Notes: generated from the letters alone by a model not told the origin. A stretch of DNA of 64,000 bases from an uncultured Actinomycetota bacterium (GCA_963717135.1 CAVQVN010000009.1:632269-696268), one strand, 5' to 3'; counted from the stretch's first letter, positions 9,143 to 40,611 are shown. Numbers and translations: made by a program.

Positions 9143-9158
9143 CCTATCACCTGATAGG
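9143..9158. promoter_or_regulatory. AmtR-box-like palindrome CCTATC-ACCT-GATAGG (copy 5) in divergent MFS / isochorismatase promoter region
   Basis: Perfect 6+6 inverted repeat with 4-nt spacer, extended to ccCTATCAccTGATAGgg. One of five copies in the window. Confidence 0.6.
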
Positions 9159-9191
9159 GTTTGGTTCGGACCCCAAGCCTCGGAGACGGAC

Positions 9192-9833
9192 ATGAACGTA
9201 CCAAGGGTTTTTCCTTCGACGATCGGCATTCTGGTGATCGACGTGCAACCGGCTTTCGTCGACCTGGCCTTTCCAGGAGGAGGACCACGACTCGACGCGC
9301 TAATGCTCCGCCTCGAGCACCTGTTGATGCTGGCCGACTGGTTGGACCTGCCCACAATTGCGACCTTCGAGACCCCCACCTCCGAAAACGGCGAGCTACC
9401 CGACCGGTTGGATAGGGTGTTTCCCACCACCGGCAGGAAGTACGTCAAGAACTTCTTCGGCAGCCTCTCCGAAACGGTCATCGAGGCGGCAGTCAGACAG
9501 GTCGACGTTCGCCAGTGGGCCGTGGCCGGAGCCGAAACAGATGTCTGCGTGCTGCAGTCGACGCTCGGGTTACTCGAGGCCGGGTACCAGGTGTTCCTTC
9601 TCGAAGACTGTTTGTTCACCACCGAACCTCATCCCGGCCCTGCCATGCGCCGCATGTATCAAGCAGGGGCGGTCTCGACCACTTTGAAGACGATGGCCTA
9701 CGAATTGGTACAGCGTGCCGACCAGATTCCCTGGTATCCGGAGTATTGGGCACCGACCTACCAGCCGGAGAAACCGTTTCCGACCGAGTTCATCGCCCCG
9801 GAGGACTGGCCGGCTTGGGAACCGGGCTTCTGA
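9192..9833 (+). CDS. Isochorismatase-family cysteine hydrolase
   Basis: 213 aa. LVIDVQ…F and AGAETDVCVLQST motifs. ATG 9192. Confidence 0.85.
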   Translation: MNVPRVFPSTIGILVIDVQPAFVDLAFPGGGPRLDALMLRLEHLLMLADWLDLPTIATFETPTSENGELPDRLDRVFPTTGRKYVKNFFGSLSETVIEAAVRQVDVRQWAVAGAETDVCVLQSTLGLLEAGYQVFLLEDCLFTTEPHPGPAMRRMYQAGAVSTTLKTMAYELVQRADQIPWYPEYWAPTYQPEKPFPTEFIAPEDWPAWEPGF

Positions 9834-9872
9834 TCGATTGTCGAACACTCGCACACTGAAGCCGGATTCACG

Positions 9873-11501
9873 TCAGAGCGCCTCGTGGGTGATCCGGCCG
9901 CCCCGCACTGTGAGGGCTATGGGTGTGGCGGCAATTTCGTGGGGCGGGATCTGAAACAGGTTCCGCTTAAGCACTACCAAGTCGGCATCCTTGCCGGTCT
10001 GCAGGGATCCCGTCACGGTGTCGATCCGCAACTGACGGGCAGCATCGATGGTCATAGCCCGGATCGCCGCCTCGACCGGCAGCGCCTCGCCCGCGGGTGG
10101 CAGTGGCTCGACATCGGTGACACCGGCCAACCGCCGAGTTACCGCGGACTCGATGAGCATGAGGGGCTTGTACGTCGACACGTAGGCGGACGCCGGATAG
10201 TCGGCACCCAACGTCACAATCACCCCGGCATCAAGAGCGCTGCGGAGGGTGTAATGCCGGTCCGCCCGCTCGCCTAGCCGGCGCCGCATGACTGCATCGA
10301 CCGGCGTCCGAGCGATCCACTGTCCCGACGTGTTGTGAACGACGCCCAGCTCGGCAAACCGGGGCAGATCGGCCGGGTCGATCAGATCGCCGTGACAGAT
10401 CGTGTGCAGGATCCCCGAGTTCCCGGCGGCCCGGACACCTGCTATCGCGTCGAGCGCGACCCTCACCGCCCGATCGCCGATGGCGTGGAAGTGACAAGCA
10501 AACCCGGCCGCATCTGCCTGCCGGGCCCACCGGCGAATCTCCTCTTCAGGCGCGGCCAGCGGCCCGCACGTGTCCGGGCGGTCATCGTAGGGCTCCAGGT
10601 ACGCCGACGTGTGCGCTTCAGGAACCCCATCGACGAAGACCTTGAGCGTGTCGATTGTGACGTTGTCCGAACGTAGAGCCCGGTTGGCTTCGCGCAGGGT
10701 CCCGACGGGATCATCTCCGAAGTTGGCCACCTTGGCCGCAACCACCCGCTGCCCGATCTCCCCTCGCCGGTCGAGATCTACCAGCATGCGCCACGCCGCC
10801 CACTCGCCGATTAGGAAGATACCGGCGTCGAAGACTCCGGTGAGCCCGGAGCCGGCATACCCGGATTGGGCGGCAAGTAACGCGCGGTGCGCCTCATCCG
10901 GTGTAAACGGCGCGCCGGCCGACCGCACGATTTCCATCGCGGACTCCTCCAATACCCACCCGTTTGGTTCGCCCCGCGAATCCCGAACGAACATCGAATA
11001 CCCGGGGTCTGGATCAGGCGTCGCGCCGGTGATGCCCGCGGCCGCGAGTGCCGCCGAGTTGACCCACAGCGAGTGGCTGTTGATCTCCCTGAGAAGCACG
11101 GGGATGTTCCCAAAAACCTCATCAAGTATTTGGCGGAGGGGACCGTCGGGGAATATGTGTGATCTCCAACCTCCGCCGGTCACAACACGCTCATCGTGCG
11201 GGTACGACTTCAAGACCGTCATGATTTCGTCGAGAGTGTCACACCCGGAGAGATCAACTCCGGCCGTTTCGAGCGGGCCCTGGACATAGTGAGTGTGTGC
11301 GTCGATGAAGCCGGGCAGGACCAGAGCTTCAGGTTCCAGTTGGATGACCCGAGTCGCAGGTCCGATCAGGGGGGCCATGTCAAGATGGGAACCCAATGCA
11401 GCAACCGTGCCGTCCGTGATGGCAATGGCCTCGGCCACCGGGCAGGCAGGGTCGAAAGTCGATATAGCCGCTCCCCGCAGGACGAGGTCGGCGTGGCTCA
11501 A
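9873..11501 (-). CDS. Metal-dependent amidohydrolase (amidohydrolase-3 family)
   Basis: 542 aa. N-terminal GFIDAHTHY metal-binding motif. Last gene of the peptide-type ABC transporter operon (4-nt overlap with the upstream ATPase gene). Confidence 0.85.
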   Translation of the reverse strand: MSHADLVLRGAAISTFDPACPVAEAIAITDGTVAALGSHLDMAPLIGPATRVIQLEPEALVLPGFIDAHTHYVQGPLETAGVDLSGCDTLDEIMTVLKSYPHDERVVTGGGWRSHIFPDGPLRQILDEVFGNIPVLLREINSHSLWVNSAALAAAGITGATPDPDPGYSMFVRDSRGEPNGWVLEESAMEIVRSAGAPFTPDEAHRALLAAQSGYAGSGLTGVFDAGIFLIGEWAAWRMLVDLDRRGEIGQRVVAAKVANFGDDPVGTLREANRALRSDNVTIDTLKVFVDGVPEAHTSAYLEPYDDRPDTCGPLAAPEEEIRRWARQADAAGFACHFHAIGDRAVRVALDAIAGVRAAGNSGILHTICHGDLIDPADLPRFAELGVVHNTSGQWIARTPVDAVMRRRLGERADRHYTLRSALDAGVIVTLGADYPASAYVSTYKPLMLIESAVTRRLAGVTDVEPLPPAGEALPVEAAIRAMTIDAARQLRIDTVTGSLQTGKDADLVVLKRNLFQIPPHEIAATPIALTVRGGRITHEAL

Positions 11502-12484
11502 TTCGGCACCTCGTTTGGCTCCCAGGCGAAATGGCAGGCGGCTCGCTGGACAACAGAGGGTCCGGTGAGATCCGGTTCCGTCTGCTCACAAATGTCCTCC
11601 GCAATCGGGCAGCGAGGTCGGAAACGACACCCGCTCGGGAGGTTCAACGCACTGGGAGGTTCGCCCTTCAGCGCAGACTCACCGGGCGCCTTCTTCACGC
11701 CGAACTTCGGGGCCGCCGCCATGAGCGCTTTCGTGTACGGATGGCGCGGATCGTCGAACATCTCTGCCGTCGGGCGATCTTCCACCGCAGTGCCCAGGTA
11801 CATCACGACCACCCGATCGCTCACGTAGCGCACCACTGCCAGGTCGTGAGAGATGAACATCAGGGTCAGGCCCAGCTCTTCGCGAAGCGTGTTGAGAAGG
11901 TTGAGCACCGGCGCCTGCACCGAAACATCGAGGGCAGCGACCGACTCGTCGGCGATCAACACCTCCGGCTCCAGGGCAAGCGCCCGGGCGATGCCAACCC
12001 TCTGGCGCTGTCCACCCGACATCCGGCGCGGGCGGGCTTTCAACAGAGAGGTGGGAAGCTCTACGAGGTCCATCAACTCGGCACAGCGGTCGGCGATCTT
12101 CGCCGGAGGAACGAGCCGGTGTACCCGGAGCAGCTCCGACAGCATCTTTTCAACGGTGAGAGAGGGATTGAGCGATGAACTCGGGTCCTGGAACACCATC
12201 TGAATTCGACGCATCGTCGCTCGAGCGCGGCCCGCTCCCAGCGTTTCACCGTCGAGACGAATCGACCCAGACGCAATCGGCACCAAACCTGTAATGGCTT
12301 TGGCCAGGGTCGATTTGCCACAGCCCGACTCACCAACAATGCCGATCGACTCGCCGCGATCGACTGCGAAGGAGATCCCGTCGACGGCAGTCAGAATCGG
12401 GGGCTTCTCGCCTTTCAGACGGGCCGCGAGCAATGACCCCACCTTGAAGTTGACGGTCACGTCCCGCACCTCGAGGAAGGTCAC
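11498..12484 (-). CDS. ABC transporter ATP-binding protein (OppF/DppF-like)
   Basis: Walker A GESGCGKST, signature LSGGQRQRV, Walker B, C-terminal oligopeptide-type extension. Confidence 0.9.
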   Translation of the reverse strand: MTFLEVRDVTVNFKVGSLLAARLKGEKPPILTAVDGISFAVDRGESIGIVGESGCGKSTLAKAITGLVPIASGSIRLDGETLGAGRARATMRRIQMVFQDPSSSLNPSLTVEKMLSELLRVHRLVPPAKIADRCAELMDLVELPTSLLKARPRRMSGGQRQRVGIARALALEPEVLIADESVAALDVSVQAPVLNLLNTLREELGLTLMFISHDLAVVRYVSDRVVVMYLGTAVEDRPTAEMFDDPRHPYTKALMAAAPKFGVKKAPGESALKGEPPSALNLPSGCRFRPRCPIAEDICEQTEPDLTGPSVVQRAACHFAWEPNEVPN

Positions 12485-13461
12485 CGGCTCGCCCCCTCGA
12501 TGAGATCGGGATGGATACAGGCGGTAGTCCGGCCTTCCGAGATGGGTCGCAGCTCATGGTCGGCGCTGGTGCAGTCTTCCCGGGCGTAGTCGCAACGTGG
12601 CGCAAACCGGCATCCGGGAGGGAAGTCACGCGGATCGGGAGGATGTCCGTCGATGCCCTCCAGCCTCTCGATGCTGGCTTGGAACGACGGCACCGACTTC
12701 ATCAACGCCTCGGTATACGGGTGCTGCGGATATGAGAACACATCGTCGACCGGTCCGGTTTCCACGATCCGTCCGGCGTACATGATCGCCAGACGATCAC
12801 ACAGCTCACCGAGCACCGCCAGGTCGTGGCTGACGAAGATGATCGACATGCTGAGTTCGGCGCGGAGCTTCTGGAGCAAGCCGAGGATCTGATCCTGGAT
12901 GGAGACGTCGAGCGCCGTGGTCGGTTCGTCGCACAGCAGCAGCTTGGGTGTGGTCGACAGCGCGGTAGCGATCATCACTCGCTGCCGGAGTCCACCCGAC
13001 AATTGGTGAGGCCACATCTTCGCCCGGCGTTCCGGGCTGGGGATTCCGACCTGGCGCATCAGCTGGATGGCCCGCTCCCGGGCTTCCGACTTGCCGAGAC
13101 CCTCATGAACTCGAGGTCCTTCTGCGATCAGATCGCCCACCTTCATCGTCGGGTTCAATGCCGTCATGGGCTCCTGAAAGATGATCGAAATGCCGTGCCC
13201 GTGAACGTCGGCCGGCCGGTAGGGAATCGGTTCCTCCCGGCCGAGGGCGAAGCGGAGCTCTCCCCCGGTGGTGGCCGCCGGCGGAAGGATGCCGATGATC
13301 GCCTTGAGGGTCAGGCTCTTGCCCGATCCGGATTCGCCGGCGATGCCGAGCGCCTCGCCACGATCCAGCGAAATGGTAACGCCGTCGACCGGGGTGACCG
13401 TCCCGGCGCCGATCTCGAAAGAGACCTCCAAATCGGCTACTTCCAGGATGCGATCGGTCAT
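12481..13461 (-). CDS. ABC transporter ATP-binding protein (OppD/DppD-like)
   Basis: Walker A GESGSGKS, signature [10 protein letters not shown]-terminal OppD-type Cys-rich tail. Confidence 0.9.
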
Positions 13462-14339
13462 GCCCGGAGACCTTCTTCGAGGCCCTCACCGACGAGCGAA
13501 AGGCCGAGCCCGAGGCCGACGATCACGAGGCCGGGAACGGTGGCCAGCCACCAGTTGGTGCGGATGAACGGCTGGCCGTCGGCGATCATCGCCCCCCACT
13601 CCGGTGTCGGTGGGGGAATCCCCAAACCGAGGAACGAGAATGCCGCCAGCGCCAGAGTGGCGAAGACGATGTCACTCGGCAGGTACACCAGAGTCTGGTT
13701 GATCACGTTCGGGAAGACGTGCACCCGGAGGATCCGCATTCGGCGCAGTCCGGCCACGCGGGCAGCCTGCAGGTAGTCGAGGTCCTTTACTCGCAAAACC
13801 TCGGTGCGGATGATGCGGGCGTAGATCACCCAGGCCAGCACCGTAAAAGCGACGATGATCGAGGTCGCCCCCTGGCCGAGGGCGAACACCAGGACGATCA
13901 CGAGAATGTAGGCCGGGAAAGCCTGAACGACATCGGCCGTCCGCATGATGGCGGTGTCGGCCCACCGGCCAAAGAACCCGGCGATCGCGCCAAGGATGGT
14001 TCCCAAAATGGCAGGCAACAGGGCTCCCAGGAAACCGATCGGAATATCGATCCGGGCCGCATAGAGCAGCCGGGAGAACACATCGCGTCCCAGCTCGTCG
14101 GTGCCGAGCCAGTGGTCGACGCTGGGGGCGGCCAGCTTGTTGACCGGGTCGATCGCCAGGGGATCGTGGGGCGCCAGAACCGGGGCGAGGAGAGCAATGA
14201 GCACATAGAAGATCAGAATCCCCAGGCCAACCCACACCTTCTTCGGAAGGCGTTTCCACATCCCCGGCTCGCCGAAGGGCACCGCGACATGGGGAAGGTC
14301 GGGGAGGGCTTCGAAGGAGGGGGCCGCGGGCGTCGTCAT
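13458..14339 (-). CDS. ABC transporter permease (DppC/OppC-like)
   Basis: The listed ORF extends to 14975, but its first 212 aa are out-of-frame overlap with the upstream permease. The ATG at 14339 gives an ATGA overlap with the permease-B stop and a native-looking N-terminus (MTTPAAPSFEALPD…). The EAA-like loop is present. Confidence 0.85.
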   Translation of the reverse strand: MTTPAAPSFEALPDLPHVAVPFGEPGMWKRLPKKVWVGLGILIFYVLIALLAPVLAPHDPLAIDPVNKLAAPSVDHWLGTDELGRDVFSRLLYAARIDIPIGFLGALLPAILGTILGAIAGFFGRWADTAIMRTADVVQAFPAYILVIVLVFALGQGATSIIVAFTVLAWVIYARIIRTEVLRVKDLDYLQAARVAGLRRMRILRVHVFPNVINQTLVYLPSDIVFATLALAAFSFLGLGIPPPTPEWGAMIADGQPFIRTNWWLATVPGLVIVGLGLGLSLVGEGLEEGLRA

Positions 14340-15277
14340 TCGATCTCCACTCTTGGGTCGAGGATGGCGGTGACGATGTCGGCGAGGAGGTAGACGGCCA
14401 CCACAACCAGGGCGAAGAGAAGTGTGTATCCCTGAACTGAAGGGAGGTCGCGGCCTCGGGCAGCGAGGACCAACCCCTGTCCGACCCCCGGTAAGGCGAA
14501 GGTGGTTTCGATCACCACCGCTCCGAAGAGCAGGAAACCGATCTCGATGGCCACCAGGGTCACCCCGGGCCCGGCCGAGTTGCGCAGCACGAAGCGTCGC
14601 ACGAGGCGTCCGCCGGCCACCCCGATCGAACGGGCAGTCGAGATGTAATCGGATTCCATGACCTGAATCATGGAAGCTCGCAGCCCCCGAATGATGAAGG
14701 GAGACGATGCGATCGCCAGCGTCAGCCCCGGCAAGATCATCGAATGGAGACGCTCCCCGAATGTCTCCCCGAACCCGCCGGCCGGAAACCACCCGGTCTT
14801 GAGCGCCACCAGGAGCAACAGGATGACCCCGGTCCAGAATGAAGGCATGCTCAACCCGAGGAGGCCGAAGCCACGGATGATCTGGTCGGCAGCCCGGTCT
14901 TTGCGAAGAGCCGCGATGACCCCCAAGGGGACACTGATCAGCAGCGTCATCAAGACGCCCGTCACCATCAGCCACACCGTGACCGAGATACGCTCACCGA
15001 TGATGCTCGATACCGGTTTGCGCGACTTGTAGGAGTAGCCGAGATCGCCCTGTAGAACATCGCCTACGTAGCGGCCGTACTGCACGATGATCGGATCGTT
15101 GAGACCCAACTCCTCGCGAACCTCCTCGAGTTGCTCTTCCGAGGCTCGAAGCCCAACAATTTGGCGGGCAGGATCGCCCGGGGTGATTTGGAGCACCAGA
15201 AAGACAACCAGCACGATTCCGAACAGCATCGGGATAGTCTGCAGCAGTCGCTTGATGACGAAGCCAAACCGACCCAA
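14336..15277 (-). CDS. ABC transporter permease (DppB/OppB-like)
   Basis: 313 aa. Six TM segments and a binding-protein-dependent transport signature. Confidence 0.9.
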   Translation of the reverse strand: MGRFGFVIKRLLQTIPMLFGIVLVVFLVLQITPGDPARQIVGLRASEEQLEEVREELGLNDPIIVQYGRYVGDVLQGDLGYSYKSRKPVSSIIGERISVTVWLMVTGVLMTLLISVPLGVIAALRKDRAADQIIRGFGLLGLSMPSFWTGVILLLLVALKTGWFPAGGFGETFGERLHSMILPGLTLAIASSPFIIRGLRASMIQVMESDYISTARSIGVAGGRLVRRFVLRNSAGPGVTLVAIEIGFLLFGAVVIETTFALPGVGQGLVLAARGRDLPSVQGYTLLFALVVVAVYLLADIVTAILDPRVEIE

Positions 15278-15314
15278 GCGATAGTCCTCCCCTCAAATTT
15301 GTAGTGTTCTTCCT

Positions 15315-16895
15315 CTATCCGCCCAGGCCGATGGTGTCGTAGTAGTAGAGACCCCAGGGAGCCGACCAAAAGCCGGTCAGATCTTGATCCACGGCATGCA
15401 GATAGGAACCCTCCGCAACGGCGATGGCCGCCGCGTTATCGATGGCCTCGTCCTGGATCTTGGCCACGATCGCCTCCATGTCGGCCCCGGTTGCCGCTTC
15501 GCTATAGGCGAGGAAGTCCTCGAACAAGGTGTCGGTCTCGAACCCGCTAAACAGCCACCCGGTGGCCATGATCCAGTTCATTGGATCGGCCATGTCGGGC
15601 TGGATGGCACCGTAGTTCCAGATGGTCATGTCGGCGTCGATCGAAAATGCCCGGTCGAGGAAGGCACCGGTCTCGAGCGAAGCCAGGGTCACATCGATCC
15701 CGATCTCGGCCAGGTTGGCCTGGATGATCTGCACCACCAGCGTGTCCAGTTCGTTGCCGGCGTCGTAGATCAGCTCGACGTCGGCTCCCCCCGCTGCCGA
15801 TGATTGTCCGATCAGATCCTGGGCCTTGGCCAGGTCCCGACGGAAGTACGGCTTGGTCGGCGGAACCCAGTTCCAGATATTCGGCGCCAGGATCCCGCTG
15901 GGAAGGCCGAAATACTCGCCGAGGGCCGCGTCGATCGCCTCGTAGTCGATCGCGTAGGCGACGGCCTGGCGGACCAGCAGATCATCGAATGGAGGCCGCA
16001 GAACGTTCATGCCGATGTGCTCGACCGAGTGGATCGTGCACTTGTACACGTCGGCCGGGTCGTACTGCGGGGCAATCGTCGGCGACAGGTACTCGTTGAT
16101 CTGCACGTCGCCACTCTGGAAAAGAATCTGTCGTTCGGTCTCATCGGCGATCACTTCGAGGACCAGCTCATCGACCTTGGGTCGCTCCGGGTCGTAGAAG
16201 TAGGGGTTCGGGGACAAAACGATGCGTCCACCCAGGGACCATTCGTCGACCACGAACGGTCCGGCGCCGATAGGACTGTTGTAGTACTCCTCTTCGGTCA
16301 TGCCGGCGAAGTCCTTGGGCATGATTCCCGAGACCGACGACGCCATGATCGGTGTGATGGTGTTGTCGGGATAGGCGAGCTCGAGCACCACCTGGTTTCC
16401 TTCGCCGGTGACTGCGGCGATGCTCTCCCAAGACAAGCCGAAGTTGGGTCCGGCTCGCCAAACGTCGAGGGAGAAGGCAACGTCTTCGGCGGTGACAGGC
16501 TCACCGTTGCTGAACCGGGCGTTTTCCTGCAAGGTGAAGGTGAGGGTCAGCCCTTCTGGGTCATATACCCAGCTCTCGGCCAAGCCCGGCTCGAGAGAAA
16601 CCCCATCGGCCCCGAAGCGGAGCAGGGGTTCCATAACGGCCAGATGGGTCTGGTAGCTGGAGTAGGCGGCGGCCGAGTCGAGTACCCATCCGTCGAAGGA
16701 CTCGAAGCGAACCGCCGTCAGAGTGCCGCCTCCTTCGGGAGGGACCCCAGTTGTATCGGTGCCGCCCGCAGTGGTCTCGGTGCCGGACTGCGTTGTGGCG
16801 GTGCCGCCCGCGGTTGTCTCTGTAGTTTCCGTGCCGCACCCCGACGCCAGCAACGCCAGCACCGCAAGGAATGCAATTGCCGTTCTCAATCTCAT
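15315..16895 (-). CDS. ABC transporter substrate-binding lipoprotein, family 5 (peptide/nickel/opine type)
   Basis: SBP_bac_5-like. Start reassigned to ATG 16895 (MRLRTAIAFLAVLALLASGCG… lipobox) with a GGAGAGGAG RBS. A Thr/Gly-rich linker follows the Cys. AmtR-box-like palindrome 56 bp upstream. Confidence 0.85.
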   Translation of the reverse strand: MRLRTAIAFLAVLALLASGCGTETTETTAGGTATTQSGTETTAGGTDTTGVPPEGGGTLTAVRFESFDGWVLDSAAAYSSYQTHLAVMEPLLRFGADGVSLEPGLAESWVYDPEGLTLTFTLQENARFSNGEPVTAEDVAFSLDVWRAGPNFGLSWESIAAVTGEGNQVVLELAYPDNTITPIMASSVSGIMPKDFAGMTEEEYYNSPIGAGPFVVDEWSLGGRIVLSPNPYFYDPERPKVDELVLEVIADETERQILFQSGDVQINEYLSPTIAPQYDPADVYKCTIHSVEHIGMNVLRPPFDDLLVRQAVAYAIDYEAIDAALGEYFGLPSGILAPNIWNWVPPTKPYFRRDLAKAQDLIGQSSAAGGADVELIYDAGNELDTLVVQIIQANLAEIGIDVTLASLETGAFLDRAFSIDADMTIWNYGAIQPDMADPMNWIMATGWLFSGFETDTLFEDFLAYSEAATGADMEAIVAKIQDEAIDNAAAIAVAEGSYLHAVDQDLTGFWSAPWGLYYYDTIGLGG

Positions 16896-16950: not shown

Positions 16951-16966
16951 CCTATCGAGGGATAGG
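16951..16966. promoter_or_regulatory. AmtR-box-like palindrome CCTATC-GAGG-GATAGG (copy 1) upstream of the ABC transporter operon
   Basis: Seen directly. 6+6 inverted repeat, 4-nt spacer. Confidence 0.6.
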
Positions 16967-28866: not shown

Positions 28867-28882
28867 CCCTATCGGGTGATAG
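28867..28882. promoter_or_regulatory. AmtR-box-like palindrome CCTATC-GGGT-GATAGG (copy 3) in divergent aminotransferase-2 / amidinotransferase-2 promoter region
   Basis: Seen directly. 24 bp from the aminotransferase-2 start codon and 66 bp from the amidinotransferase-2 start. Confidence 0.6.
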
Positions 28883-28947
28883 GTAGTATATCGCCCACGA
28901 CCGCGCCGGACAACGCGGAATCCCCTGGACAAGAGTGAGGAGACGCT

Positions 28948-30081: not shown

Positions 30082-30087
30082 GAGCCA

Positions 30088-30112
30088 TCAGTTGTCAGTC
30101 GTCAGTTATCAG
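30088..30112. repeat. Tandem heptamers cagttgt/cagtcgt/cagttat immediately after stop codon
   Basis: Seen directly. Related to the tracts at 9834-9865 and 33340-33376. Confidence 0.35.
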
Positions 30113-30122
30113 GAGGGTCACC

Positions 30123-31457: not shown

Positions 31458-31527
31458 CGTGAACCAGGTTGGTCGGTGGACCGTCGCCGGCCAACCTCTT
31501 GGTCGAGACAACAGATGGAGGGGTGAC

Positions 31528-33339
31528 GTGGCGACAATCCTGAAGCCTGCGACCGAATTCGAAGTGAGCCGGTATTCCGTTGACCTGACCGATCAGACGG
31601 TACGGCATGAGACCGTCCGGTGCGAGGATCTCGAGGATGCTCTGGGTGGGATCGCCCGGGCTACCAAACTGCTGGCCGACCTCACGGTCGAAGATCCGTA
31701 CGATCCGGCGGCGCCCCTCGTGATGAACCTCGGGCTCTTGAGCGGAACCCAGGTGATGACCGGGTTGCGAACCTTCTTTCACGGCTACTCGCCTCTCAAA
31801 CAGGCGGTGAACGGCCAACCCGGGCTGATGTGGTCGGCCGGGAGCGGACATTTCGGCACCAAACTGCGCGGACTCGGGATCGACGAGGTCATCTTCACGG
31901 GCCGAGCGGACCGGCCCACCCTGCTGTATCTAGCTCCCGGCGGCGAAGAGGGGTCCGCTCACTTTCAATTCCTCGACGCAACCGACCTCACCGGCCGAAC
32001 CGTAAACGACCGGATTCAGGACCTGCACGGTCGGTATCCCGAGGCGCATTTCGCGGTGATCGGCCCGGCCGGGGAGCACTACGAATCGGTGCGCTTCGCC
32101 TCGATAGCCCTTTCCACGGACAATCAGCTGGAGAGCGGCGACGGCAAGCCCCGCTTCTGCGGGCGAGGCGGCTACGGAGGGGTGATGGCATCCAAGAACC
32201 TGTGGGCCATTGCCGCCGACGGGCCCAACCCGCCGCGGGCTCGCGGCCTGAAGGAAATCAACCGGGAGATCAACCTGGGCGAAGGCAGTGCCCGTTACCG
32301 GGACCTCGAACACGATCGGGGCGGCACCTGGCGAACTATGAAAATGATGCAGGAAGCTCAGTCGCTGCCCGAGTTCAACTTCGCCCCGACCGGCACCGAC
32401 GCCTCAGTTCCGCTGCTCCGGCCCAGCGTTGAGGAAGGACCCTACGTCGTGCAGGCGGAGGGGTGCTACCTGTGCGGGATCAAGTGCCACAAGAACGTTT
32501 TCGATCGGCTCGACGATGGCGAAGCCGGCACCTTTCGAGCCAAGGTCGACTTCGAGCCCATCACTCTGCTGTCCTCCAACCTGGGAATCTTCGATCCCGA
32601 TGTGGCGTTTTCCCTCATCGAGCTCACCGACGAATTGGGCATGGACTCGATCTCACTCGGTGTCACGCTGGGTTATGCGATGGATAACAACCGCCGCACC
32701 GGATCCCGCCTCCTCGGGGGACTGGCATTCTCCGACCCGGCCGGCGTCACCGAGGCGATCCGGGCGGTGGCCGCCGGACGGCTGCCCGAGTTGGGACAGG
32801 GTGTCAAGCGGCTGTCGGAGCAGGCGGGAGAAACCGCCTACGCCATGCATTCCAAAGGACTCGAGTATCCGGCCTACCAGCCGCACACGAACCCGGGATT
32901 TCCGTGGGCCCTGGCCGGCGGTCACATGTCGATGCGGACCTTTTTCCTCTACGTCATCGAGCGCGAGACCGGGGTTGATTACTGGGTCGACGCCATCACC
33001 AACCGGGGGCCCCTCTACTTGATGGACGACATCACCGGGCTGTGCAAGTTCGCCAATGTCGGTCCCGACTTCGAAGCCGAGGCGCTCCGGATCGCCACGG
33101 GTTTGAATATCACCGGCGAGCAACTCGCGGCGACCGTGATGCGGACCTTCCTGCGCGGCTATGCCTGTGAGCGACGATCCGGATTCGGCACCGACGACTA
33201 CCGGCTGCCCGCGGCAGCCCACGAGCCGATGGAGGGTTCCAACCTGCCGCACTTCAACACGTCCGAGTTCTTCGAAGAGGTGCAGTCGCGGGTGATGGAA
33301 ACCCTAGACCACCGCGCGGTCGAAGCCGGATTCATGTAG
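31528..33339 (+). CDS. Aldehyde:ferredoxin oxidoreductase (AOR) family tungsto/molybdo-pterin enzyme, copy 1
   Basis: 603 aa from GTG 31528 (GGAGG 6 nt upstream). AFOR_N-like start (ATILKPATEFEVSRYSVDLTDQTV…), GRGGYGGVMASKNLWAIA block, and CYLCGIKC (C-x2-C-x3-C), the [4Fe-4S] ligand spacing of AOR. Confidence 0.8.
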   Translation: MATILKPATEFEVSRYSVDLTDQTVRHETVRCEDLEDALGGIARATKLLADLTVEDPYDPAAPLVMNLGLLSGTQVMTGLRTFFHGYSPLKQAVNGQPGLMWSAGSGHFGTKLRGLGIDEVIFTGRADRPTLLYLAPGGEEGSAHFQFLDATDLTGRTVNDRIQDLHGRYPEAHFAVIGPAGEHYESVRFASIALSTDNQLESGDGKPRFCGRGGYGGVMASKNLWAIAADGPNPPRARGLKEINREINLGEGSARYRDLEHDRGGTWRTMKMMQEAQSLPEFNFAPTGTDASVPLLRPSVEEGPYVVQAEGCYLCGIKCHKNVFDRLDDGEAGTFRAKVDFEPITLLSSNLGIFDPDVAFSLIELTDELGMDSISLGVTLGYAMDNNRRTGSRLLGGLAFSDPAGVTEAIRAVAAGRLPELGQGVKRLSEQAGETAYAMHSKGLEYPAYQPHTNPGFPWALAGGHMSMRTFFLYVIERETGVDYWVDAITNRGPLYLMDDITGLCKFANVGPDFEAEALRIATGLNITGEQLAATVMRTFLRGYACERRSGFGTDDYRLPAAAHEPMEGSNLPHFNTSEFFEEVQSRVMETLDHRAVEAGFM

Positions 33340-33376: not shown

Positions 33377-35311
33377 TCACCTCTCGAATCCCATCCGGCG
33401 AAGGCCTTCGACCACGCGACCATCATCAAGCAGCTCCCGGAGAGCGGCGACCGCCGGGCGATCCCAACGCGGTTCGGGAACGGCAAAGTCGAACTGCTCG
33501 TCCTGTAGGAAGCGGAAGGTCAGTCCGGCGGCTTCCGCTACCGTGTCGAGGGTTACTCCCCAGTCCGCTCTCCCCTGCTCGACCGCCGCCACCACCGCGT
33601 GGTGGGTCCTGGGTTGATGCAGATACCCCTCGGGCCTGCTCCCGTCGAGTAATTGATCGATGAGAACCCGGGTTCCACTACCCGGGTTCCGGTTGACCAT
33701 CCGGTACGGACCACTTCGGAGGATTCCCGAGAGGTCTTCACCGTCGGCTTGTACCAGTTCATGGTCGTCGGATCGGAAGACGATCCCCTGGCGCCGCCGG
33801 TATCCGCGCAGCAGCCGAACCCCGGGCGGCAAGAAGGGCGTGTTGTACTCACCGGTCTCCTCATCCATCAGGTGGATACCGGCCAGGTCGGCCTCTCCCC
33901 GGCCTACTGCGGTCAGACCACCGGTGGATCCCACCGGCACCATCTTGACGCGGTATCCCCGGTCGGCCAGCCGGCCGAGCAGATAATCCAGACCGACACA
34001 GTGACTCCCGATGACGACCAGGTCGGCCGGACGCAACTCTGGATGCAGCAGATGGACCTCAACCAGAGCCCCCTCATCGATGAACTCCGTCGAGTCGGGG
34101 ATCCGGATGAAACCATCCGCCCGTCCGAACGCGGTCACGCTCCCCGAACCGGCCCCCTGGGGGTAAGCCGCCAGACCGGTAGGTCCCTCCACCAGGTCGA
34201 CCAGGTTGTACTCGGTCCTCCCGGGGGCCGAGGTGATGCGCAAAGGCACGGTCGCTTGCACGATCCCCCGCTCGCCGGTGGGCAAACCGGCCAGCCGGCG
34301 TAGCAAGGGCGCTACGAACTCGTGAAACGTAAATATGGCGGAGGTAGGAAAGCCGGGCAGCACCACCACCGGAATCCCCGAAACAACCGCCAGCAAGACG
34401 GGCTTGCCCGGCTTGAGAGCCACCCCGTGCACAACGATGCCGGCGGAATCGGGCAATCGTTCCGCCAGCTTCTGCACCACGGTGGAGTTGAGATCTCCTT
34501 CCCCCTTGGACGTTCCGCCCGACAACAGCACGACATCCACAGCCTCGGGCCCGGAGACCAGCCCCTCAATCGTTCGCGAGAGCAACGCCTCGTCGTCGGG
34601 AATGATCCCCCCCGCCACCGGCCGGCAACCGAGTTCGGCAACTGCGTCCGCCAGCATGCGCTGGTTGGAGTCAAATACCTGGCCTACTTCGAGAAGCCGT
34701 CCCGGTTCCACGATTTCGTCACCGGTCGACACCACCGCCACCCGCGGGCGGGCGATCACGTCGACCTGGACGACCCCGATCGCCGCCAGCACGCCGGTCT
34801 CGCGCGAACTGAGGTGGGTACCGCGCCGCATCACCGTATCGCCCCGACCGATATCGGATCCGGCGAAAGTGATGTTCCCACCCGGAACCGCCGGTCGGAC
34901 CACTCCGATGCCGTTCGGGTGGGGTTCGGTGTGCTCCACCATCAGCACTGCGTCCGCCCCCCGCGGGACCACTCCGCCGGTGGCCACCGCCACGGCCTCC
35001 CCGGAACTCACCTCGAAACCCACCGGGGGTGCTTGCCCGGCCACGAGCGAGATATCTGCAACAGACAGCACGATCGGGGCCAGTTCCTCGGCCCCGAAGG
35101 TGTCTTCGGCCCGCACGGCATACCCGTCCATGTTGCTCCGATCGAAAGCAGTTACATCGACGCCGGAGACGACATCGTCCGCCAGAACTCGCCCCAAAGC
35201 CGAATCCAGGCGGATGGTCTCGCGGCGCGGCCGCAGGTGGGCGCAGGCGGCCTCGAATCGCCGGTGGGCCACCGATTCGTCGACCACATCGAGAAACTGT
35301 CTCTGTCTCAT
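33377..35311 (-). CDS. Molybdopterin molybdenum/tungsten-transferase MoeA fused to a C-terminal periplasmic-binding-protein-like (oxyanion-binding-like) domain
   Basis: Start at ATG 35311 (ATGA overlap with the upstream gene). MoeA blocks (FDRSNMDGYAV, GGTSKGEGD, …GLPGFPTSA…) followed by ~190 aa of PBP-like domain (…MVPVGSTGGL…). Confidence 0.8.
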   Translation of the reverse strand: MRQRQFLDVVDESVAHRRFEAACAHLRPRRETIRLDSALGRVLADDVVSGVDVTAFDRSNMDGYAVRAEDTFGAEELAPIVLSVADISLVAGQAPPVGFEVSSGEAVAVATGGVVPRGADAVLMVEHTEPHPNGIGVVRPAVPGGNITFAGSDIGRGDTVMRRGTHLSSRETGVLAAIGVVQVDVIARPRVAVVSTGDEIVEPGRLLEVGQVFDSNQRMLADAVAELGCRPVAGGIIPDDEALLSRTIEGLVSGPEAVDVVLLSGGTSKGEGDLNSTVVQKLAERLPDSAGIVVHGVALKPGKPVLLAVVSGIPVVVLPGFPTSAIFTFHEFVAPLLRRLAGLPTGERGIVQATVPLRITSAPGRTEYNLVDLVEGPTGLAAYPQGAGSGSVTAFGRADGFIRIPDSTEFIDEGALVEVHLLHPELRPADLVVIGSHCVGLDYLLGRLADRGYRVKMVPVGSTGGLTAVGRGEADLAGIHLMDEETGEYNTPFLPPGVRLLRGYRRRQGIVFRSDDHELVQADGEDLSGILRSGPYRMVNRNPGSGTRVLIDQLLDGSRPEGYLHQPRTHHAVVAAVEQGRADWGVTLDTVAEAAGLTFRFLQDEQFDFAVPEPRWDRPAVAALRELLDDGRVVEGLRRMGFER

Positions 35312-36813
35312 CCGGCAGCCCATGAGTCGTAGAGATGAACCTCCACCTCGGCTCCCTCCGCGTATCCCTCCAGACCGGCCGGAACCACCACAAACCCGGA
35401 CGCCCGGGTCACCGAGGACAGAACCGACGCTCCCGAGATGGCGAGAGGACGAACCCCGTCGCCCTCGATCTGGACCCGGGCGTAGTCGGTACGGCCAATC
35501 TGCGACACCAGACGTTTGGCAAGGGGCAGGCGGCGGGAGAGGTACGGCCACGCTTCCGGCAGCCCGCCCAACCTCCGGATGACCGGTCCCGCAAAGAAGT
35601 CGTATGCCACCAAACAGGAGACCGGATTGCCCGGCAGGATCAGCACCGGCCGGCCACCGATCCTTCCCACCCCGGTCGGCGAGGAGGGTCGCATGGCCAC
35701 CCCGTGGATAACCAACTCGCCCAGCTCGTCCACCAGCACGGGAACACGATCTTCGGCACCTACCGAGGCCGCCCCGGCGGTCAAAATGACGTCTGTTCCG
35801 GAGCGAGCGAGCGCCTCGCGCATCGCCTCCTGATTGTCGGGGAGCCGCACGACTTCGGCCTGCCCCCCGTCCCGCTCGATCAAGGCGGCCAACATCGGCG
35901 AGTTGCTATCAACGATGCTGGTGCCGTGCGGCTGTTCGCCGGGAGCCACCAGCTCGTTGCCCGAGACGATCACCAGTACCAGCGGTCGCCGAACCACCGA
36001 AACCGGATGATGTCCGATCGATGCCAGCAAGCCAACGTCCTGGGGCAAGAGCCGGCGCCCGTCGGTGAGCGCGAGGTCGCCGATCTCGATGTCCTCGCCG
36101 ATCCGCCCGACATTCCGATCCCGAGCGACCGGAGCCCGGACCTCGACAATTCGATCCCTTTCGGTCGTATCCTCGGCCCGCAGGACCGCATCTGCTCCTT
36201 GGGGCAGCGGGGCGCCGGTCATGATCCGCATCGACGAGCCCCGCTCCACCGAGATGTCGGGCGTAGACCCGGGAAGGGACTCGCCGATCACCGTCAGGTG
36301 TACCGGCGAATAGGCCGAAGCCCCATAGGTGTCGTCGGCCTGCACGGCATAGCCGTCCATGGTGGCCCGGCGAAAGGCCGGGACGGCCACCCGGCTGATC
36401 ACGTCGCCTGCCAGAACCCGGCCGGCCGCCTCCCCGACCGGGACCGTTTCCGGGGGAAGTCGTTGGACTCCGGCCAGAGCGGCGCTCCGGGCTTCCCCCA
36501 CGGTGGCCCGGTGTCGGAACCCGCGCATCCGAACGTCTTCGGCTCCACCGACGACATTGATGATCACCTCGAGCCGATCGTCCGGTCCGACCGACGTGCC
36601 GGCCTGAACATCCCGCAACACCTGGCGACCGTTGTGGAATAGGGACAGGTGGGCATGCAGGAGACCGTCGGTATCGAACAGGCGAAGCTCCAGGTCTGGA
36701 TGCGCGGCGGTCGCCGCCCGGAGGGCCGCCGTGACCGTCGGGGCGTCCACCTCGAGGTATTCATAACCCGATGCATACTTGCGCAGCAGCTTGGGAAGAC
36801 GCACGGTCACCAT
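35308..36813 (-). CDS. MoaD/ThiS-like β-grasp domain fused in-frame to MoeA (molybdopterin metal-transferase)
   Basis: N-terminal ~85 aa (MVTVRLPKLL…VIINVVGG) is MoaD-like, including the Gly-Gly. It continues without a stop into MoeA blocks (FRRATMDGYAV, …LTAGAASVGAEDRV…, GNPVSC). Start at 36813 or 36822 (uncertain). Confidence 0.75.
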   Translation of the reverse strand: MVTVRLPKLLRKYASGYEYLEVDAPTVTAALRAATAAHPDLELRLFDTDGLLHAHLSLFHNGRQVLRDVQAGTSVGPDDRLEVIINVVGGAEDVRMRGFRHRATVGEARSAALAGVQRLPPETVPVGEAAGRVLAGDVISRVAVPAFRRATMDGYAVQADDTYGASAYSPVHLTVIGESLPGSTPDISVERGSSMRIMTGAPLPQGADAVLRAEDTTERDRIVEVRAPVARDRNVGRIGEDIEIGDLALTDGRRLLPQDVGLLASIGHHPVSVVRRPLVLVIVSGNELVAPGEQPHGTSIVDSNSPMLAALIERDGGQAEVVRLPDNQEAMREALARSGTDVILTAGAASVGAEDRVPVLVDELGELVIHGVAMRPSSPTGVGRIGGRPVLILPGNPVSCLVAYDFFAGPVIRRLGGLPEAWPYLSRRLPLAKRLVSQIGRTDYARVQIEGDGVRPLAISGASVLSSVTRASGFVVVPAGLEGYAEGAEVEVHLYDSWAAG

Positions 36814-36823
36814 GCCGGGCATC

Positions 36824-37390
36824 CTACGAGGAGCGTCGCGCGATTCGCCGGGCATACAGAGCGCCACCGGCGCGCCACATCGCCCACCCCAGCATTCCGC
36901 CGGCGGCGCCAAAGACGAGATGGTTGGCCAGGGCGCCCAGAAAGCCGAATACCTCGACGCGCCGCAGTATGTCGGAGATCCAGGCGTTGGCGAACACAAA
37001 TCCAAACTTGGCGAGGTGGATGACGACCCCGGCCAAGGATGCTCCCCACAGGCGTCGCATGGGCAGACGCAGCAGCGTCCCGGAGTCCAGGAGGCTTCCG
37101 GCCAGGCCGTACAGCATCATGTTGTAGCCAATCGAATGGCCCACGCCGATCGGGACTCCCCACAGTCCCATCGAAAGCCCGGCCACCGTGGCCATTCCGG
37201 CGCGCCCGTTGAGCAGACGGCCGGAAACCAGCACGGCAATCCACCCGACCCCGGCGTGGCCCGGGATGCCCAGGTGGAAGTCCAGATATCTTTTGGCGAG
37301 GGTTGCCACCAAGCCGACGGCCACTGCCAGGACCAGGTCGACCGAAAGCGATCGCGGCCGGGTTGATCTACTTCGAGCGAGTGTCTGCAT
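36824..37390 (-). CDS. Hypothetical integral membrane protein
   Basis: 188 aa, 5-6 predicted hydrophobic helices. Located inside the AOR-2 / moeA operon. No family recognised. Confidence 0.45.
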   Translation of the reverse strand: MQTLARSRSTRPRSLSVDLVLAVAVGLVATLAKRYLDFHLGIPGHAGVGWIAVLVSGRLLNGRAGMATVAGLSMGLWGVPIGVGHSIGYNMMLYGLAGSLLDSGTLLRLPMRRLWGASLAGVVIHLAKFGFVFANAWISDILRRVEVFGFLGALANHLVFGAAGGMLGWAMWRAGGALYARRIARRSS

Positions 37391-38096: not shown

Positions 38097-38508
38097 CGAC
38101 GTCCCTCACCCATTGCTCACGCGGGAGATCTGCGGTGGCCAGTTTGAGTGTGCCCTGTTTGGTGACGTCGAGGATCCACCCGTCATCGACCTGCGTGGAA
38201 GTGATTTCGAGGGTGACTTCAACGACGCGCCCCTCCCCCATGCCGAACACCTCGGCCGTGTCCCACTCTTCCACGTCGGAGGCAGCGAGCACGTCGAGGA
38301 GCCGCGGTCCGGATTGATCGTCCCCGTCGATCGTCATCGAAACGAACTCGACCTGGCTTTCCAGATCGGCCAGTGTCCAGTCGCCCACCACCTTCCCGGC
38401 CAACACGACCCGCAGGACGACGTCATCGGCCGGTGGTTCGGTCGCGTCGGTCGCACACCCGGCCATGACGACCATCGCCACCACCACCACCACCCAGATC
38501 CGCTTCAC
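38077..38508 (-). CDS. Hypothetical small lipoprotein
   Basis: A GTG start at 38508 overlaps the AOR-2 stop (GTGA). The N-terminus VKRIWVVVVVAMVVMAGC… is a lipoprotein signal peptide. The listed ORF's extra 123 N-terminal aa are Arg-rich out-of-frame overlap with AOR-2. Confidence 0.45.
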   Translation of the reverse strand: MKRIWVVVVVAMVVMAGCATDATEPPADDVVLRVVLAGKVVGDWTLADLESQVEFVSMTIDGDDQSGPRLLDVLAASDVEEWDTAEVFGMGEGRVVEVTLEITSTQVDDGWILDVTKQGTLKLATADLPREQWVRDVGEISIP

Positions 38509-40462
38509 AGGGCCAGCTCCGGCTTGAGCCAACCGAGACCCAGCGCCTCGAGCGTCTCCGCTGTTGGGTTGCCGCCGACCGGATCCCAACCCGCCATCTC
38601 GTAATAGGTTTCGAGGGCGGCCTCGAACTCGGCCCGGTCGACGACCTTGCCGTTGCTGGGGCCGCCGTCGAGCGGTTCGAACAATCGCTTGGGGAGCGTG
38701 TCCCGCTCGCGAGTGATACCTTCCCGAGCGTTGAAAGCCCGCAGCATGTTGAGACGGCGGGCGCCGATGGTGAGCAAATCGGCCACGGTGGTTTCCTCGC
38801 CGGTCACGGCGGTGATCACACCGGCCAGTTCCTCCATCCCCAGCAGTTGCCAGGCCGGTCCGAACACGAACTGGCATACGTCTGCGGTGTCCATCGCCGA
38901 ATACGCATACTGGGTCTTCAAGGCGTACTCCACTTTTCCGGCGTTGAGGACCTCCTCGGGCTGCGGATTGGTGAGGCCGAGGTCGGCCGCTCGTTTGCCG
39001 TACTTCTCGGGCGAGTCGGCAATCAACTCGGGTGTGTAGTTGGGGTCGTGTTCGCTGGATTGATGGTCGGCTCCGAACGGGTTGACCGCGTAGATCAAAG
39101 CCAGGGAAGGTTTGACCTGCGGCATGTGGGCCGGGAGTTCTTCACCCTTCACCGCCACGACCAGATCCTCAGCGCCGTTGCCGAGGTGAGCGCCGGCCCG
39201 GGCAGACCCTTCCGCCAGGACGTCACCGAATCCGTCCCGGATGAGGGTCTTCTCCAGCATGGCGATCATTGCCTCGGCTTTCCCCCACCCCAGTTCGATT
39301 CCTCCGGTGTCATCCGAATTGATCAGACCTTCTTCGTAGCAGTTGATGGCGAAGGCCATCGTGGCTCCGGCCGCGATGGTGTCGACCCCGTATTGATTGC
39401 ATAGCTGATTGGCATAGGCGATGGCATGAATGTCGTCGATGTCGCAGTACGAACCAAAGACGGAGGAAGTCTCGTATTCCTGACCGCCCGACTTGGGATC
39501 GATCTTCCGGCCCTGCCATTCGGCGTCGACGACCCGCTTGCAACGGACCGCGCAGGAATAGCAAGTCTCTCGACCCAGCTTCATCTGGTCGTCTTCATCC
39601 GCGCCGCGCAGCAGTTCTTTGAATAGGCGTTCCCCACCGATGGCGGCCGCCCGGTCGTAGCCCATCCACCCGCTCTGATAGTTGCGGGTGGGAAGCCCTC
39701 CGTTGGCATTCTGACTTTCGAGAATCCCGAGGGTTCCGTGCTTGGCGAGATCCCATACGTCTGGGTCTTCTTTGATTGCCGGGATCGAGGGCTGCATGAT
39801 GGCCCGGACGCCCTCCGGATCGGCCATGCCCAGCTTTCGTTTGCCCCGCGAACCACGATCGCTTTGAGCTTCTTGCTGCCCATCACCGCACCCATGCCGG
39901 TGCGCCCGTGGGCCCGGGTCGCCATATTCATGATGGCCGCGAACCGGACGAGGTTCTCCCCGGCGGGGCCCACCTGCGCAACCTGAATGCGATGGTCCCC
40001 GAGTTCCTTCTGCAACATCTCCTCGGTCTCCAGGGTCATCTTGCCCCACAGATGGGAGGCGTCGCGTAGTTCCACCTCGCCCTGATTGATCCAGAGATAG
40101 ACCGGGGTAGGAGAGATTCCTCGCACCACGATCCCGTCGAATCCCGCGAATTTCAGCTCGGCCGGCCAGAATCCCCCGGCCTGGCTGTCACCCACCCCCC
40201 CGGTCATCGGGGATTTGGCGACCACAGTCGCCCGGCTCTGCCCGGCGATCGGCGCTCCGGTGATCCCGGACAGCATGAATGCCAGCGTGTTGTCGGGCCC
40301 GTAAGGATCCGCCCCGGCCGGGGTGTTCTTGAGCAAGTAGTAGAGGCCGAGGGCGCTGCCGCCCATGTACGTCCGGTACAGCTCCTCGGGTGGTTCCTCG
40401 ATGTCGAGCGAACCCGTCGTCAGGTCAACATGAAGGATCTTGCCAGCGTAGCCGTGAAGCAT
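38505..40462 (-). pseudogene. Aldehyde:ferredoxin oxidoreductase (AOR) family gene, copy 2, interrupted by a single frameshift near 39844-39847
   Basis: The N-terminal 215 aa (ORF 39581..40462: …RAHGRTGMGAVMGSKKLKAIVVRG) and the C-terminal ~440 aa (ORF 38505..40049: KRKLGMADPEG… and AOR C-domain blocks) are in different frames. They join at a C4 (plus strand) / G4 homopolymer. Confidence 0.75.
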
Positions 40463-40595
40463 TGAGCCTCCCTGGGCGATTATTCCGGCATCCTACCGGG
40501 ATTATCTCCCCCCGGGATTCTCGAACGAGGAGGAATCAATCGATTTGAAGCGCCGCCGAAATATGGGGGGGTCGCCGCATCGATAGCCACTCTGA

Positions 40596-40611
40596 CCTAT
40601 CATTCGATAGG
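40596..40611. promoter_or_regulatory. AmtR-box-like palindrome CCTATC-ATTC-GATAGG (copy 4) between the AOR-2 operon and divergent CoA-transferase gene
   Basis: Seen directly. 32 bp upstream of the CoA-transferase ATG. An additional GATAGC half-site lies at ~40581. Confidence 0.6.

Follow-up and report, generated by a model that had tools for sequence, protein, structure and literature searches.

Five strictly spaced palindromes as putative operators of an AmtR-like TetR regulator in a nitrogen-release gene cluster of an uncultured actinobacterium

What reads a palindrome that recurs five times within 31 kb of DNA, and which genes does it govern? The question is raised by a stretch of 64,000 nucleotides from an uncultured Actinomycetota bacterium (GCA_963717135.1 CAVQVN010000009.1:632269-696268), hereafter the window, in which copies of CCTATC-N4-GATAGG surround a gene for a TetR-family protein (23284-23937). 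We propose that the five palindromes are probably operators of this adjacent, AmtR-like TetR protein, which would use them to repress a local nitrogen-release regulon. A cluster-specific repressor appears to be the best reading of the sequence, and by 'AmtR-like' we mean that the protein would work like AmtR and is closest to it. Many TetR regulons of this kind have been predicted. The host is probably an uncultured Acidimicrobiia-type actinobacterium; to our knowledge, Acidimicrobiia have no characterised nitrogen regulator, and no transcription factor has been characterised in the lineage at hand.

Occurrence and conservation of the palindrome

Exact copies of CCTATCNNNNGATAGG are found four times in the window (operators 1, 2, 4 and 5 in Table 1), against 0.00 expected from 100 dinucleotide-preserving shuffles of the same DNA. 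The fifth copy, operator 3, departs from CCTATC-N4-GATAGG by one mismatch. The looser form CTAT-N6-ATAG has five matches, against 0.10 expected. The original prediction, which had described five perfect copies, is thus right for four of them; its coordinates are right for sites 1, 2 and 5 and off by one base for sites 3 and 4, and the excess of the motif over shuffled expectation holds within the 64 kb.

The half-site CCTATC alone occurs at chance level (28 observed, 26.7 expected). Inverted CTATC/GATAG pairs, in turn, are found five times with a spacer of 4 and only once at all other spacers from 0 to 20 together. A single spacer length combined with a half-site that is not enriched is characteristic of a dimeric DNA-binding protein and is not what base composition would produce; such AT-rich palindromes are also conspicuous because the window has a G+C content of about 63%. 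Allowing up to two mismatches, we found no sixth site in the window. A position weight matrix derived from 32 sites likewise detected nothing there beyond the five copies, although this search is circular because the matrix was built from exact CTATC-N4-GATAG matches.

All five copies are intergenic, and they lie 24-64 bp from the nearest start codon, a range slightly wider than the 24-60 bp first given. They are confined to the 31 kb surrounding the regulator gene. No copy is observed in the flanks (1-9 kb and 41-64 kb, 32 kb in all), which consist of housekeeping DNA with genes for GltX, GatA/GatB, DapD, LigA, MnmA, glycogen enzymes and a Mo/W ABC transporter. This clustering of sites around the regulator suggests a local cluster regulator and not a master nitrogen regulator.

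No identical copy of the window's TetR protein was present in the protein collection searched. Its best homologues are 55-92% identical and come from metagenomes and metagenome-assembled genomes labelled Acidimicrobiia or Actinomycetes. We compared about 13 related loci of metagenomic or assembled-genome origin (those singled out below carry L numbers), where the TetR orthologues are 55-77% identical to that of the window. Each has the TetR gene in divergent orientation to an operon encoding an amidinotransferase, an aminotransferase, an amidohydrolase, a deiminase and a CN-hydrolase, in some cases followed by ABC transporter genes; the operon enzymes, at about 70-91% identity, are better conserved than the regulator. 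The sequence AGCCTATCAAA[T/C]GATAG is invariant in every orthologous gap between the TetR and amidinotransferase genes, and the flanks of the palindrome have diverged. A palindrome held constant in this divergent gap fits the usual placement of a TetR-family operator, at which binding is predicted. The link between regulator and motif, first drawn from the window alone, is therefore upheld by phylogenetic footprinting.

In seven non-redundant relative loci, 22 of the 23 sites are intergenic, in sequences whose coding density is 82-95%. The consensus of 32 unique sites reads (a/g)CCTATC-R-NN-Y-GATAGG(t/c), and the CTAT-N6-ATAG spacing is kept by all 32 as well as by the window's five. The 4-nt spacer initially described is strict in length but partly constrained in sequence, so that the conserved unit is longer (CCTATC-R-NN-Y-GATAGG).

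The same motif is found over differing gene orders, which is a classic signature of a conserved regulon. The amidase gene is preceded by its own full site in L003, L018 and L019, as is the ureohydrolase gene in L003. A divergon of aminotransferase-2 and amidinotransferase-2 with a site between them recurs in L016 and L017, and L016 also shares with the window the order amidinotransferase-2, unknown open reading frame (ORF), AOR_1 (an aldehyde:ferredoxin oxidoreductase, AOR). In L026, two amidinotransferase genes share two sites, and a homologue of the CoA-transferase lies inside an operon headed by a motif site; in L018, an isochorismatase homologue belongs to the amidinotransferase-1 operon, at the head of which stands the TetR-gap site. 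L022, L026 and L027 have a site at an internal junction of the main enzyme operon. The ABC importer operon comes after the enzyme operon in relatives too.

CTATC-N4-GATAG was absent from 12 unrelated loci with weakly matching TetR genes (26-43% identity), from 483 kb representing 80 unrelated metagenomic loci retrieved in a scan for the CoA-transferase, and from about 700 kb of unrelated control loci in all. In the closest CoA-transferase locus (L029, 78% identity), the gene has another upstream context and no site; the scan is a negative control and not a conservation test of site 5.

Some sites in the relatives precede other types of genes. MttB-family methyltransferase/corrinoid-protein clusters and an acyl-CoA dehydrogenase/EamA divergon are preceded by the motif, and L018 has a motif-preceded amidase followed by ureAB-ureC (motif coordinates for the methyltransferase, EamA and amidase-ure genes: L018 3027, L019 5981, L022 9509, L018 10719-14872). 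Elsewhere in the lineage, the regulon may therefore extend to methylated amines and urea. We also observed a 26-bp perfect palindrome, TACTGCCTATCGCTTGATAGGCAGTA, in L016 (10685-10698; also L017 7119) between the convergent ends of the TetR and ACBP genes. No promoter is expected there, and the palindrome may be either an operator that lacks a target or a terminator acting in both directions. In the window itself, a lone half-site, CCTATCA (23958-23964), is found in the gap from the TetR stop to the amidase start, where L003, L018 and L019 carry the complete palindrome. It resembles the remnant of an operator, in which case the amidase may now rely on read-through from the TetR promoter.

The regulator and competing explanations

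The protein encoded at 23284-23937 has the N-terminal TetR_N helix-turn-helix and the all-helical C-terminal regulatory domain of a TetR-family member; as anticipated, no other DNA-binding regulator was recognised in the 9-41 kb island. Among solved proteins, both profile and fold place it nearest to AmtR of Mycobacterium smegmatis and of Corynebacterium glutamicum. A search of PDB with the single sequence ranked C. glutamicum AmtR best (E about 5e-12), with other TetRs close behind and M. smegmatis AmtR at 9e-9. With a profile of 32 family members, M. smegmatis AmtR came first at 118 bits, and C. glutamicum AmtR, at about 99.5 bits, was level with the unrelated PfmR (3vpr, 99.3 bits). Identity to the AmtR proteins is 21-33%, and the matches stop at about residue 140. 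The proposed AmtR-like character holds in that AmtR is the closest relative and its DNA-contact residues are kept; given the small margins over non-AmtR TetRs and the low identity, we treat orthology to AmtR as unproven.

Mutagenesis of C. glutamicum AmtR has identified T42, Q53, S55, Y57, Y58 and H59 as important for CTAT binding (PMC2723105). The window regulator has T, Q, S, F, F and H at these positions, that is, two conservative Y-to-F changes. Relative to C. glutamicum AmtR, it also has R for H43 and P for A54, which are the TetR residues. Reading of the extra G-C pair of CTATC is ascribed to the Arg of TetR, and the looser specificity of AmtR to its His and Ala (PMC2723105); the Arg/Pro pair fits the strictly conserved fifth base of CTATC. 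The DNA-reading residues are invariant or nearly so across orthologues and, as judged from sequence, appear to fit the CTATC half-site.

Two of the palindromes lie close to promoter-like sequences. At site 4, a sigma-70 consensus scan detected TTGTCC-17-TATACT on the minus strand, stopping 1 nt short of the operator, so that the operator would overlie the point where transcription of the aminotransferase-2 operon begins. We read by eye, on the plus strand, a TAGTAT directly after the operator and a TTGTTT 18 nt upstream; flanked in this way, the operator would fill the spacer of the amidinotransferase-2 promoter. At site 3, reading by eye suggests a minus-strand promoter for amidinotransferase-1 (TCGACA 23181-23176, 17 nt, TAGGCT 23158-23153), whose spacer the operator would fill and whose -10 it would overlap. 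The TGTCGA beside site 3, conserved in relatives, is read as the -35 (TCGACA) of this promoter. On the plus strand, TAGACT follows the operator, facing the TetR gene.

We may then hypothesize the following mechanism. A homodimer of the regulator would place each helix-turn-helix on one CCTATC(R) half-site, at AmtR-type spacing, and once bound would cover the -10, the spacer or the +1 of the overlapped promoters. Most probably, a single dimer on each operator would sterically exclude RNA polymerase, and the repressor would, like TetR, be autoregulated, so that it would shut off its own gene and about eight transcription units. The regulon products would import guanidino/polyamine-type compounds, strip their nitrogen and pass the carbon skeleton on. 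Derepression would presumably occur when a signal at the C-terminal domain causes loss of DNA binding. This signal may be a pathway metabolite, as suggested by the tight synteny with one catabolic operon, or a protein partner, for which the precedent of C. glutamicum AmtR suggests GlnK. In this scheme, we infer the binding itself, its sense (repression or activation), the promoter positions, the substrate and the effector.

A number of observations weigh against assigning all five palindromes to this repressor. The motif counts cover only 64 kb of the genome. The sigma-70 scan found a promoter at site 4 only and none at the other sites; promoter positions come from weak consensus matches or, elsewhere, from our own reading of TAnnnT and -35-like hexamers. 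Conservation at orthologous junctions covers sites 3 and 4 of the five. Site 2 is missing from the same CN-hydrolase/SBP5 junction in L003, L016, L024 and L027; it was also flagged in a terminator scan as a weak, terminator-like hairpin, and is the least supported of the five operators. Furthermore, relatives encode a paralogous regulator, TetR-2, which is 31-36% identical to the window's TetR, has an almost identical recognition helix (GIRQPSLFHHF, against GISQPSLFFHF in the window regulator) and lies beside very similar sites, making the assignment of every site to one protein insecure. TetR-2 is found in L018 (14890-16590), L022 (6102-7764), L024 (8435-10131) and L003 (14609-15315); in the first three, a perfect palindrome of 22-24 bp, GTAACCTATCGATCGATAGGTTAC, separates it from a divergently oriented OTCase-like gene.

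One may thus ask whether some or all of the sites are bound mainly by a TetR-2 encoded elsewhere in the genome, leaving the adjacent TetR in control of its own divergent operon only. The near-identical recognition helix, the perfect palindromes next to TetR-2 in relatives and the existence of two spacer classes (CA-AA-TG at the TetR-1 gene, CG-AT-CG at the TetR-2 gene) speak for such a division of labour. Yet the five sites of the window do not split cleanly into these two classes, no TetR-2 gene was found in the 64 kb, and L016 and L027 have multiple sites without any TetR-2 in 16-20 kb, so that we regard this explanation as quite improbable. A little less improbable, but still unlikely in our judgement, is a true AmtR orthologue, that is, a global nitrogen-starvation regulator released by modified GlnK (PII), for which the five sites would be the local part of a larger regulon including amtB, glnA, gltBD and urease. 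This would agree with the identity of the closest solved relatives, with the AmtR-type operator layout and with targets that all release nitrogen. In L018, moreover, urease genes follow the motif-preceded amidase, and C. glutamicum AmtR also controls creatine/creatinine genes (an MFS transporter and N-carbamoylsarcosine amidase). Against it stand the limited and truncated similarity to AmtR described above, with its small margins over non-AmtR TetRs, and the confinement of all sites to 31 kb, with none in the 32 kb of flanks. In every relative, the gene keeps tight synteny with one catabolic operon, as is typical of pathway-specific TetRs. C. glutamicum AmtR has an Arg-rich N-terminal extension, which the regulator sequence lacks. 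The urea carboxylase/permease operon that accompanies actinobacterial amtR is not in the window either: neither urea carboxylase nor amino-acid permease was found by Pfam scans among its 59 largest ORFs, and an amidase lies directly 3' of the TetR gene.

Palindromes of this size may also act as RNA or DNA hairpins (terminators, attenuators or REP-like repeats), or they may be fortuitous. Each copy can indeed form a hairpin of 5-6 bp (-4.3 to -7.0 kcal/mol), site 2 follows a gene end, and the 26-bp palindrome of L016 lies between convergent gene ends. But the stems are short, AT-rich and weak for a 63% GC genome, and four of the five sites are located between divergent starts or 5' of a gene instead of at 3' ends. 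The arm sequence is conserved but the loop is variable, and compensatory arm changes are not seen. Chance is opposed by an expectation of 0.00 in shuffles. Searches with Rfam at gathering thresholds matched only a tRNA, and no family in the island, on which ground a riboswitch or other RNA element was also rejected. On the grounds of weak stems, location 5' of genes, absence of Rfam matches and null expectation, we rejected the hairpin, terminator and chance explanations, to which we attach very little probability. Repression by the adjacent AmtR-like TetR protein is thus the reading retained below.

Genes under the motif

Gene families were assigned from Pfam, NCBIfam and PDB searches, and starts by inspection of start codons (Table 1). 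The putative regulon would span about eight transcription units; these hold about 22 genes, and as many as about 28 with the AOR2/MoeA cluster described below. It would be a multi-unit regulon as originally predicted, with the earlier estimate of at least five units and about 25 genes revised. Family searches confirm that the targets combine transport with enzymes that cleave C-N bonds or deaminate.

Table 1. Predicted operators and associated genes in the window (distances are to the start codons given)
Feature	Position	Strand	Sequence	Description
Operator 1	9143-9158		CCTATCACCTGATAGG	Between divergent MFS and isochorismatase-family genes; exact match; 41 bp from MFS start (GTG 9101, -), 33 bp from isochorismatase-family start (ATG 9192, +)
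Operator 2	16951-16966		CCTATCGAGGGATAGG	Past CN-hydrolase stop, 5' of SBP5 ABC-transporter operon; exact match; 55 bp from SBP5 start (ATG 16895, -)
Operator 3	23155-23170		CCTATCAAATGATAGA	Between amidinotransferase-1 and TetR genes, autoregulatory position; one mismatch; 37 bp from amidinotransferase-1 start (ATG 23117, -), 113 bp from TetR start (ATG 23284, +)
Operator 4	28868-28883		CCTATCGGGTGATAGG	Between aminotransferase-2 and amidinotransferase-2; exact match; 24 bp from aminotransferase-2 start (ATG 28843, -), 64 bp from amidinotransferase-2 start (GTG 28948, +)
Operator 5	40596-40611		CCTATCATTCGATAGG	5' of family-III CoA-transferase and divergent AOR2; exact match; 31 bp from CoA-transferase start (ATG 40643, +), 133 bp from AOR2 start (ATG 40462, -)
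MFS transporter	7902-9101	-		Pfam MFS_1; putative target of operator 1
Isochorismatase-family hydrolase	9192-9833	+		Pfam Isochorismatase; putative target of operator 1
ABC importer operon	9873-16895	-		SBP_bac_5 lipoprotein, OppB/OppC-like permeases, two ATPases, second Amidohydro_3
Main enzyme operon	16990-23117	-		Five genes with overlapping stop/start codons
N-carbamoylputrescine-amidase-like CN-hydrolase	16990-17931	-		Main enzyme operon
Agmatine-deiminase-like enzyme	17928-18935	-		Main enzyme operon
Amidohydro_3	18932-20560	-		Main enzyme operon
Class-III aminotransferase	20557-21951	-		Main enzyme operon
Amidinotransferase-1	21984-23117	-		AGAT-like; first gene of main enzyme operon
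TetR-family regulator	23284-23937	+		217 aa, AmtR-like; proposed repressor
Amidase	24010-25446	+		Pfam Amidase; probably co-transcribed with TetR gene
Aminotransferase-2 operon	25436-28843	-		Three genes; putative target of operator 4
Agmatinase/ureohydrolase-family enzyme	25436-26419	-		Aminotransferase-2 operon; agmatinase model above cut-off
Alanine dehydrogenase	26482-27603	-		Aminotransferase-2 operon; alaDH model above cut-off
Aminotransferase-2	27629-28843	-		Aminotransferase-2 operon
Amidinotransferase-2 operon	28948-33339	+		Three genes; putative target of operator 4
Amidinotransferase-2	28948-30081	+		First gene of amidinotransferase-2 operon
Conserved ORF	30123-31457	+		444 aa; between amidinotransferase-2 and AOR_1
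Aldehyde:ferredoxin oxidoreductase AOR_1	31528-33339	+		Amidinotransferase-2 operon
Family-III CoA-transferase	40643-41803	+		Pfam CoA_transf_3, NCBIfam matches below cut-off; putative target of operator 5

Amidinotransferase-1 resembles human AGAT (E 1e-59) and has the catalytic Cys, His and Asp motifs; the ABC importer is of the peptide/opine type. Judging from annotation, the guanidino group would be removed in three ways: by amidino transfer (two paralogues), by deimination followed by decarbamoylation, and by ureohydrolysis. Two omega-aminotransferases would be coupled to alanine dehydrogenase, regenerating pyruvate and freeing ammonium, after which an AOR would oxidise the resulting aldehydes and the CoA-transferase would activate the acid. 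On the window proteins, neither the agmatine deiminase nor the N-carbamoylputrescine amidase model reaches its cut-off, and the true substrates may therefore be related compounds. 'Nitrogen-scavenging' is a fair label for these functions, and the pathway could equally serve carbon use. The conserved ORF preceding AOR_1 was assigned to no family by our Pfam, NCBIfam and PDB searches, which returned only marginal CobW/HypB-like P-loop matches.

A second AOR gene, AOR2 (38505-40462, minus strand), is split into two overlapping frames (AFOR_N 39581-40462, AFOR_C 38505-40049), and the frame changes at about 39.8 kb, which reflects either a pseudogene or an assembly or sequencing error. The AOR genes are flanked by two MoeA paralogues, one of them a PBP_like fusion, and by a ModA/TupA-like ABC transporter with a TOBE ATPase (33377-37005 and 42109-44635). 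No copy of the motif lies directly 5' of the MoeA or transporter genes. This gene set is consistent with a supply of tungsten or molybdenum cofactor for the AORs. In the flanks, a tRNA-Glu gene (UUC; 152-227, minus strand) adjoins the glutamyl-tRNA synthetase gene (320-1768, minus strand). Between 48000 and 52000, sharp swings in GC/AT skew (+0.07/-0.15, then -0.20/+0.19) coincide with several ORFs without family match and an HNH-endonuclease ORF (50231-50995); this region may be a small inserted element.

We may also entertain a bolder reading, which we consider unlikely, in which the AmtR-like TetR, possibly together with TetR-2, is the nitrogen-scavenging regulator of the Acidimicrobiia and its regulon is an undescribed guanidino catabolic route using amidinotransferases 'in reverse'. 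The two AGAT-like amidinotransferases would pass the amidino group to an acceptor, which the ureohydrolase would then cleave. The remaining amines would go to pyruvate-dependent transaminases, alanine dehydrogenase and a tungsten-type AOR replacing the NAD-dependent aldehyde dehydrogenase.

These results do not overturn current understanding: the proposed switch is of an ordinary bacterial kind. They provide a ready-made candidate regulon and a well-defined predicted operator for an uncultured actinobacterial lineage. About 22 genes are grouped as one putative unit, including two amidinotransferases in a catabolic setting, the conserved unknown ORF and an AOR, and the regulon offers a lead to the nitrogen-rich compound that these bacteria consume. 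In its operator as in its predicted DNA-reading residues, the regulator is intermediate between TetR/tetO and AmtR, which makes it a test case for the separate evolution of half-site identity (Arg/Pro versus His/Ala) and half-site spacing in TetR regulators.

Comparison with AmtR and TetR systems

Every site in the window has the organisation of an AmtR-type operator, a CT[A/G]T inverted repeat with 6 bp between the cores. The original prediction had equated CTAT-N6-ATAG with the core of the C. glutamicum AmtR box, and this agrees with the published consensus tttCTATN6AtAGat/aA, in which the 6-bp spacing is essential; TetR uses CTATC with 5 bp (PMC2723105). In S. avermitilis, M. smegmatis, R. 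jostii and others, the AmtR operator is given as TAtCTGTCa-n2-cGACAGATAT (Chen et al. 2013, as quoted in PMC8864220). The window motif, CTATCr-n2-yGATAG, has the 5+4+5 layout of this CTGTC-type box together with the A of the C. glutamicum box. M. smegmatis and S. avermitilis AmtR share the operator layout and differ at the third base of the half-site, G there and A here. The helix-turn-helix of M. smegmatis AmtR (PDB 5E57) begins with T-R, as does that of the window regulator, but overall identity is only about 21%.

Outside corynebacteria, amtR co-occurs with an operon for an amino-acid permease, urea carboxylase and an amidase (PMC4222082). The proposed regulon is similar in that it is a small, partly adjacent set of nitrogen-release genes including an amidase. 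Its content differs: instead of urea carboxylase, an allophanate-hydrolase-type amidase and an amino-acid permease, we find amidinotransferases, a deiminase, aminotransferases, AOR and an ABC transporter.

With C. glutamicum AmtR (PDB 5DXZ, 5DY0, 5DY1, 5MQQ, 6GY3), the system shares the CTAT-N6-ATAG core, the DNA-contact residues T42, Q53, S55 and H59 and, as proposed here, repression of the transport and catabolism of alternative nitrogen sources. In contrast, C. glutamicum AmtR is a global regulator of at least 35 genes, among them amtB, glnA, gltBD and ure, and does not control its own expression. Pfam scans of the window's ORFs found no amtB, glnK, glnA, gltBD or ure. Adenylylated GlnK brings about the release of C. 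glutamicum AmtR, for which no small ligand is known. The box of this AmtR is AT-rich in its flanks and leaves the spacer unconstrained, whereas here the spacer ends are constrained (C-R..Y-G), and its H43/A54 pair is R/P in the window regulator.

The tet operator, tetO (TCCCTATCAGTGATAGAGA), has the half-site CCTATCA. The half-site of the window is identical, and the likeness to TetR (class B/D) extends to Arg and Pro at the positions of TetR Arg28 and Pro39, to a single operator predicted to serve divergent promoters, the regulator's own included, and to weak but significant matches at the level of the helix-turn-helix. Unlike in tetO, the half-sites are one base pair further apart (N6 versus N5). 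There is no efflux-pump target, and the C-terminal domain is unrelated to that of TetR; the effector of the window regulator is surely not tetracycline.

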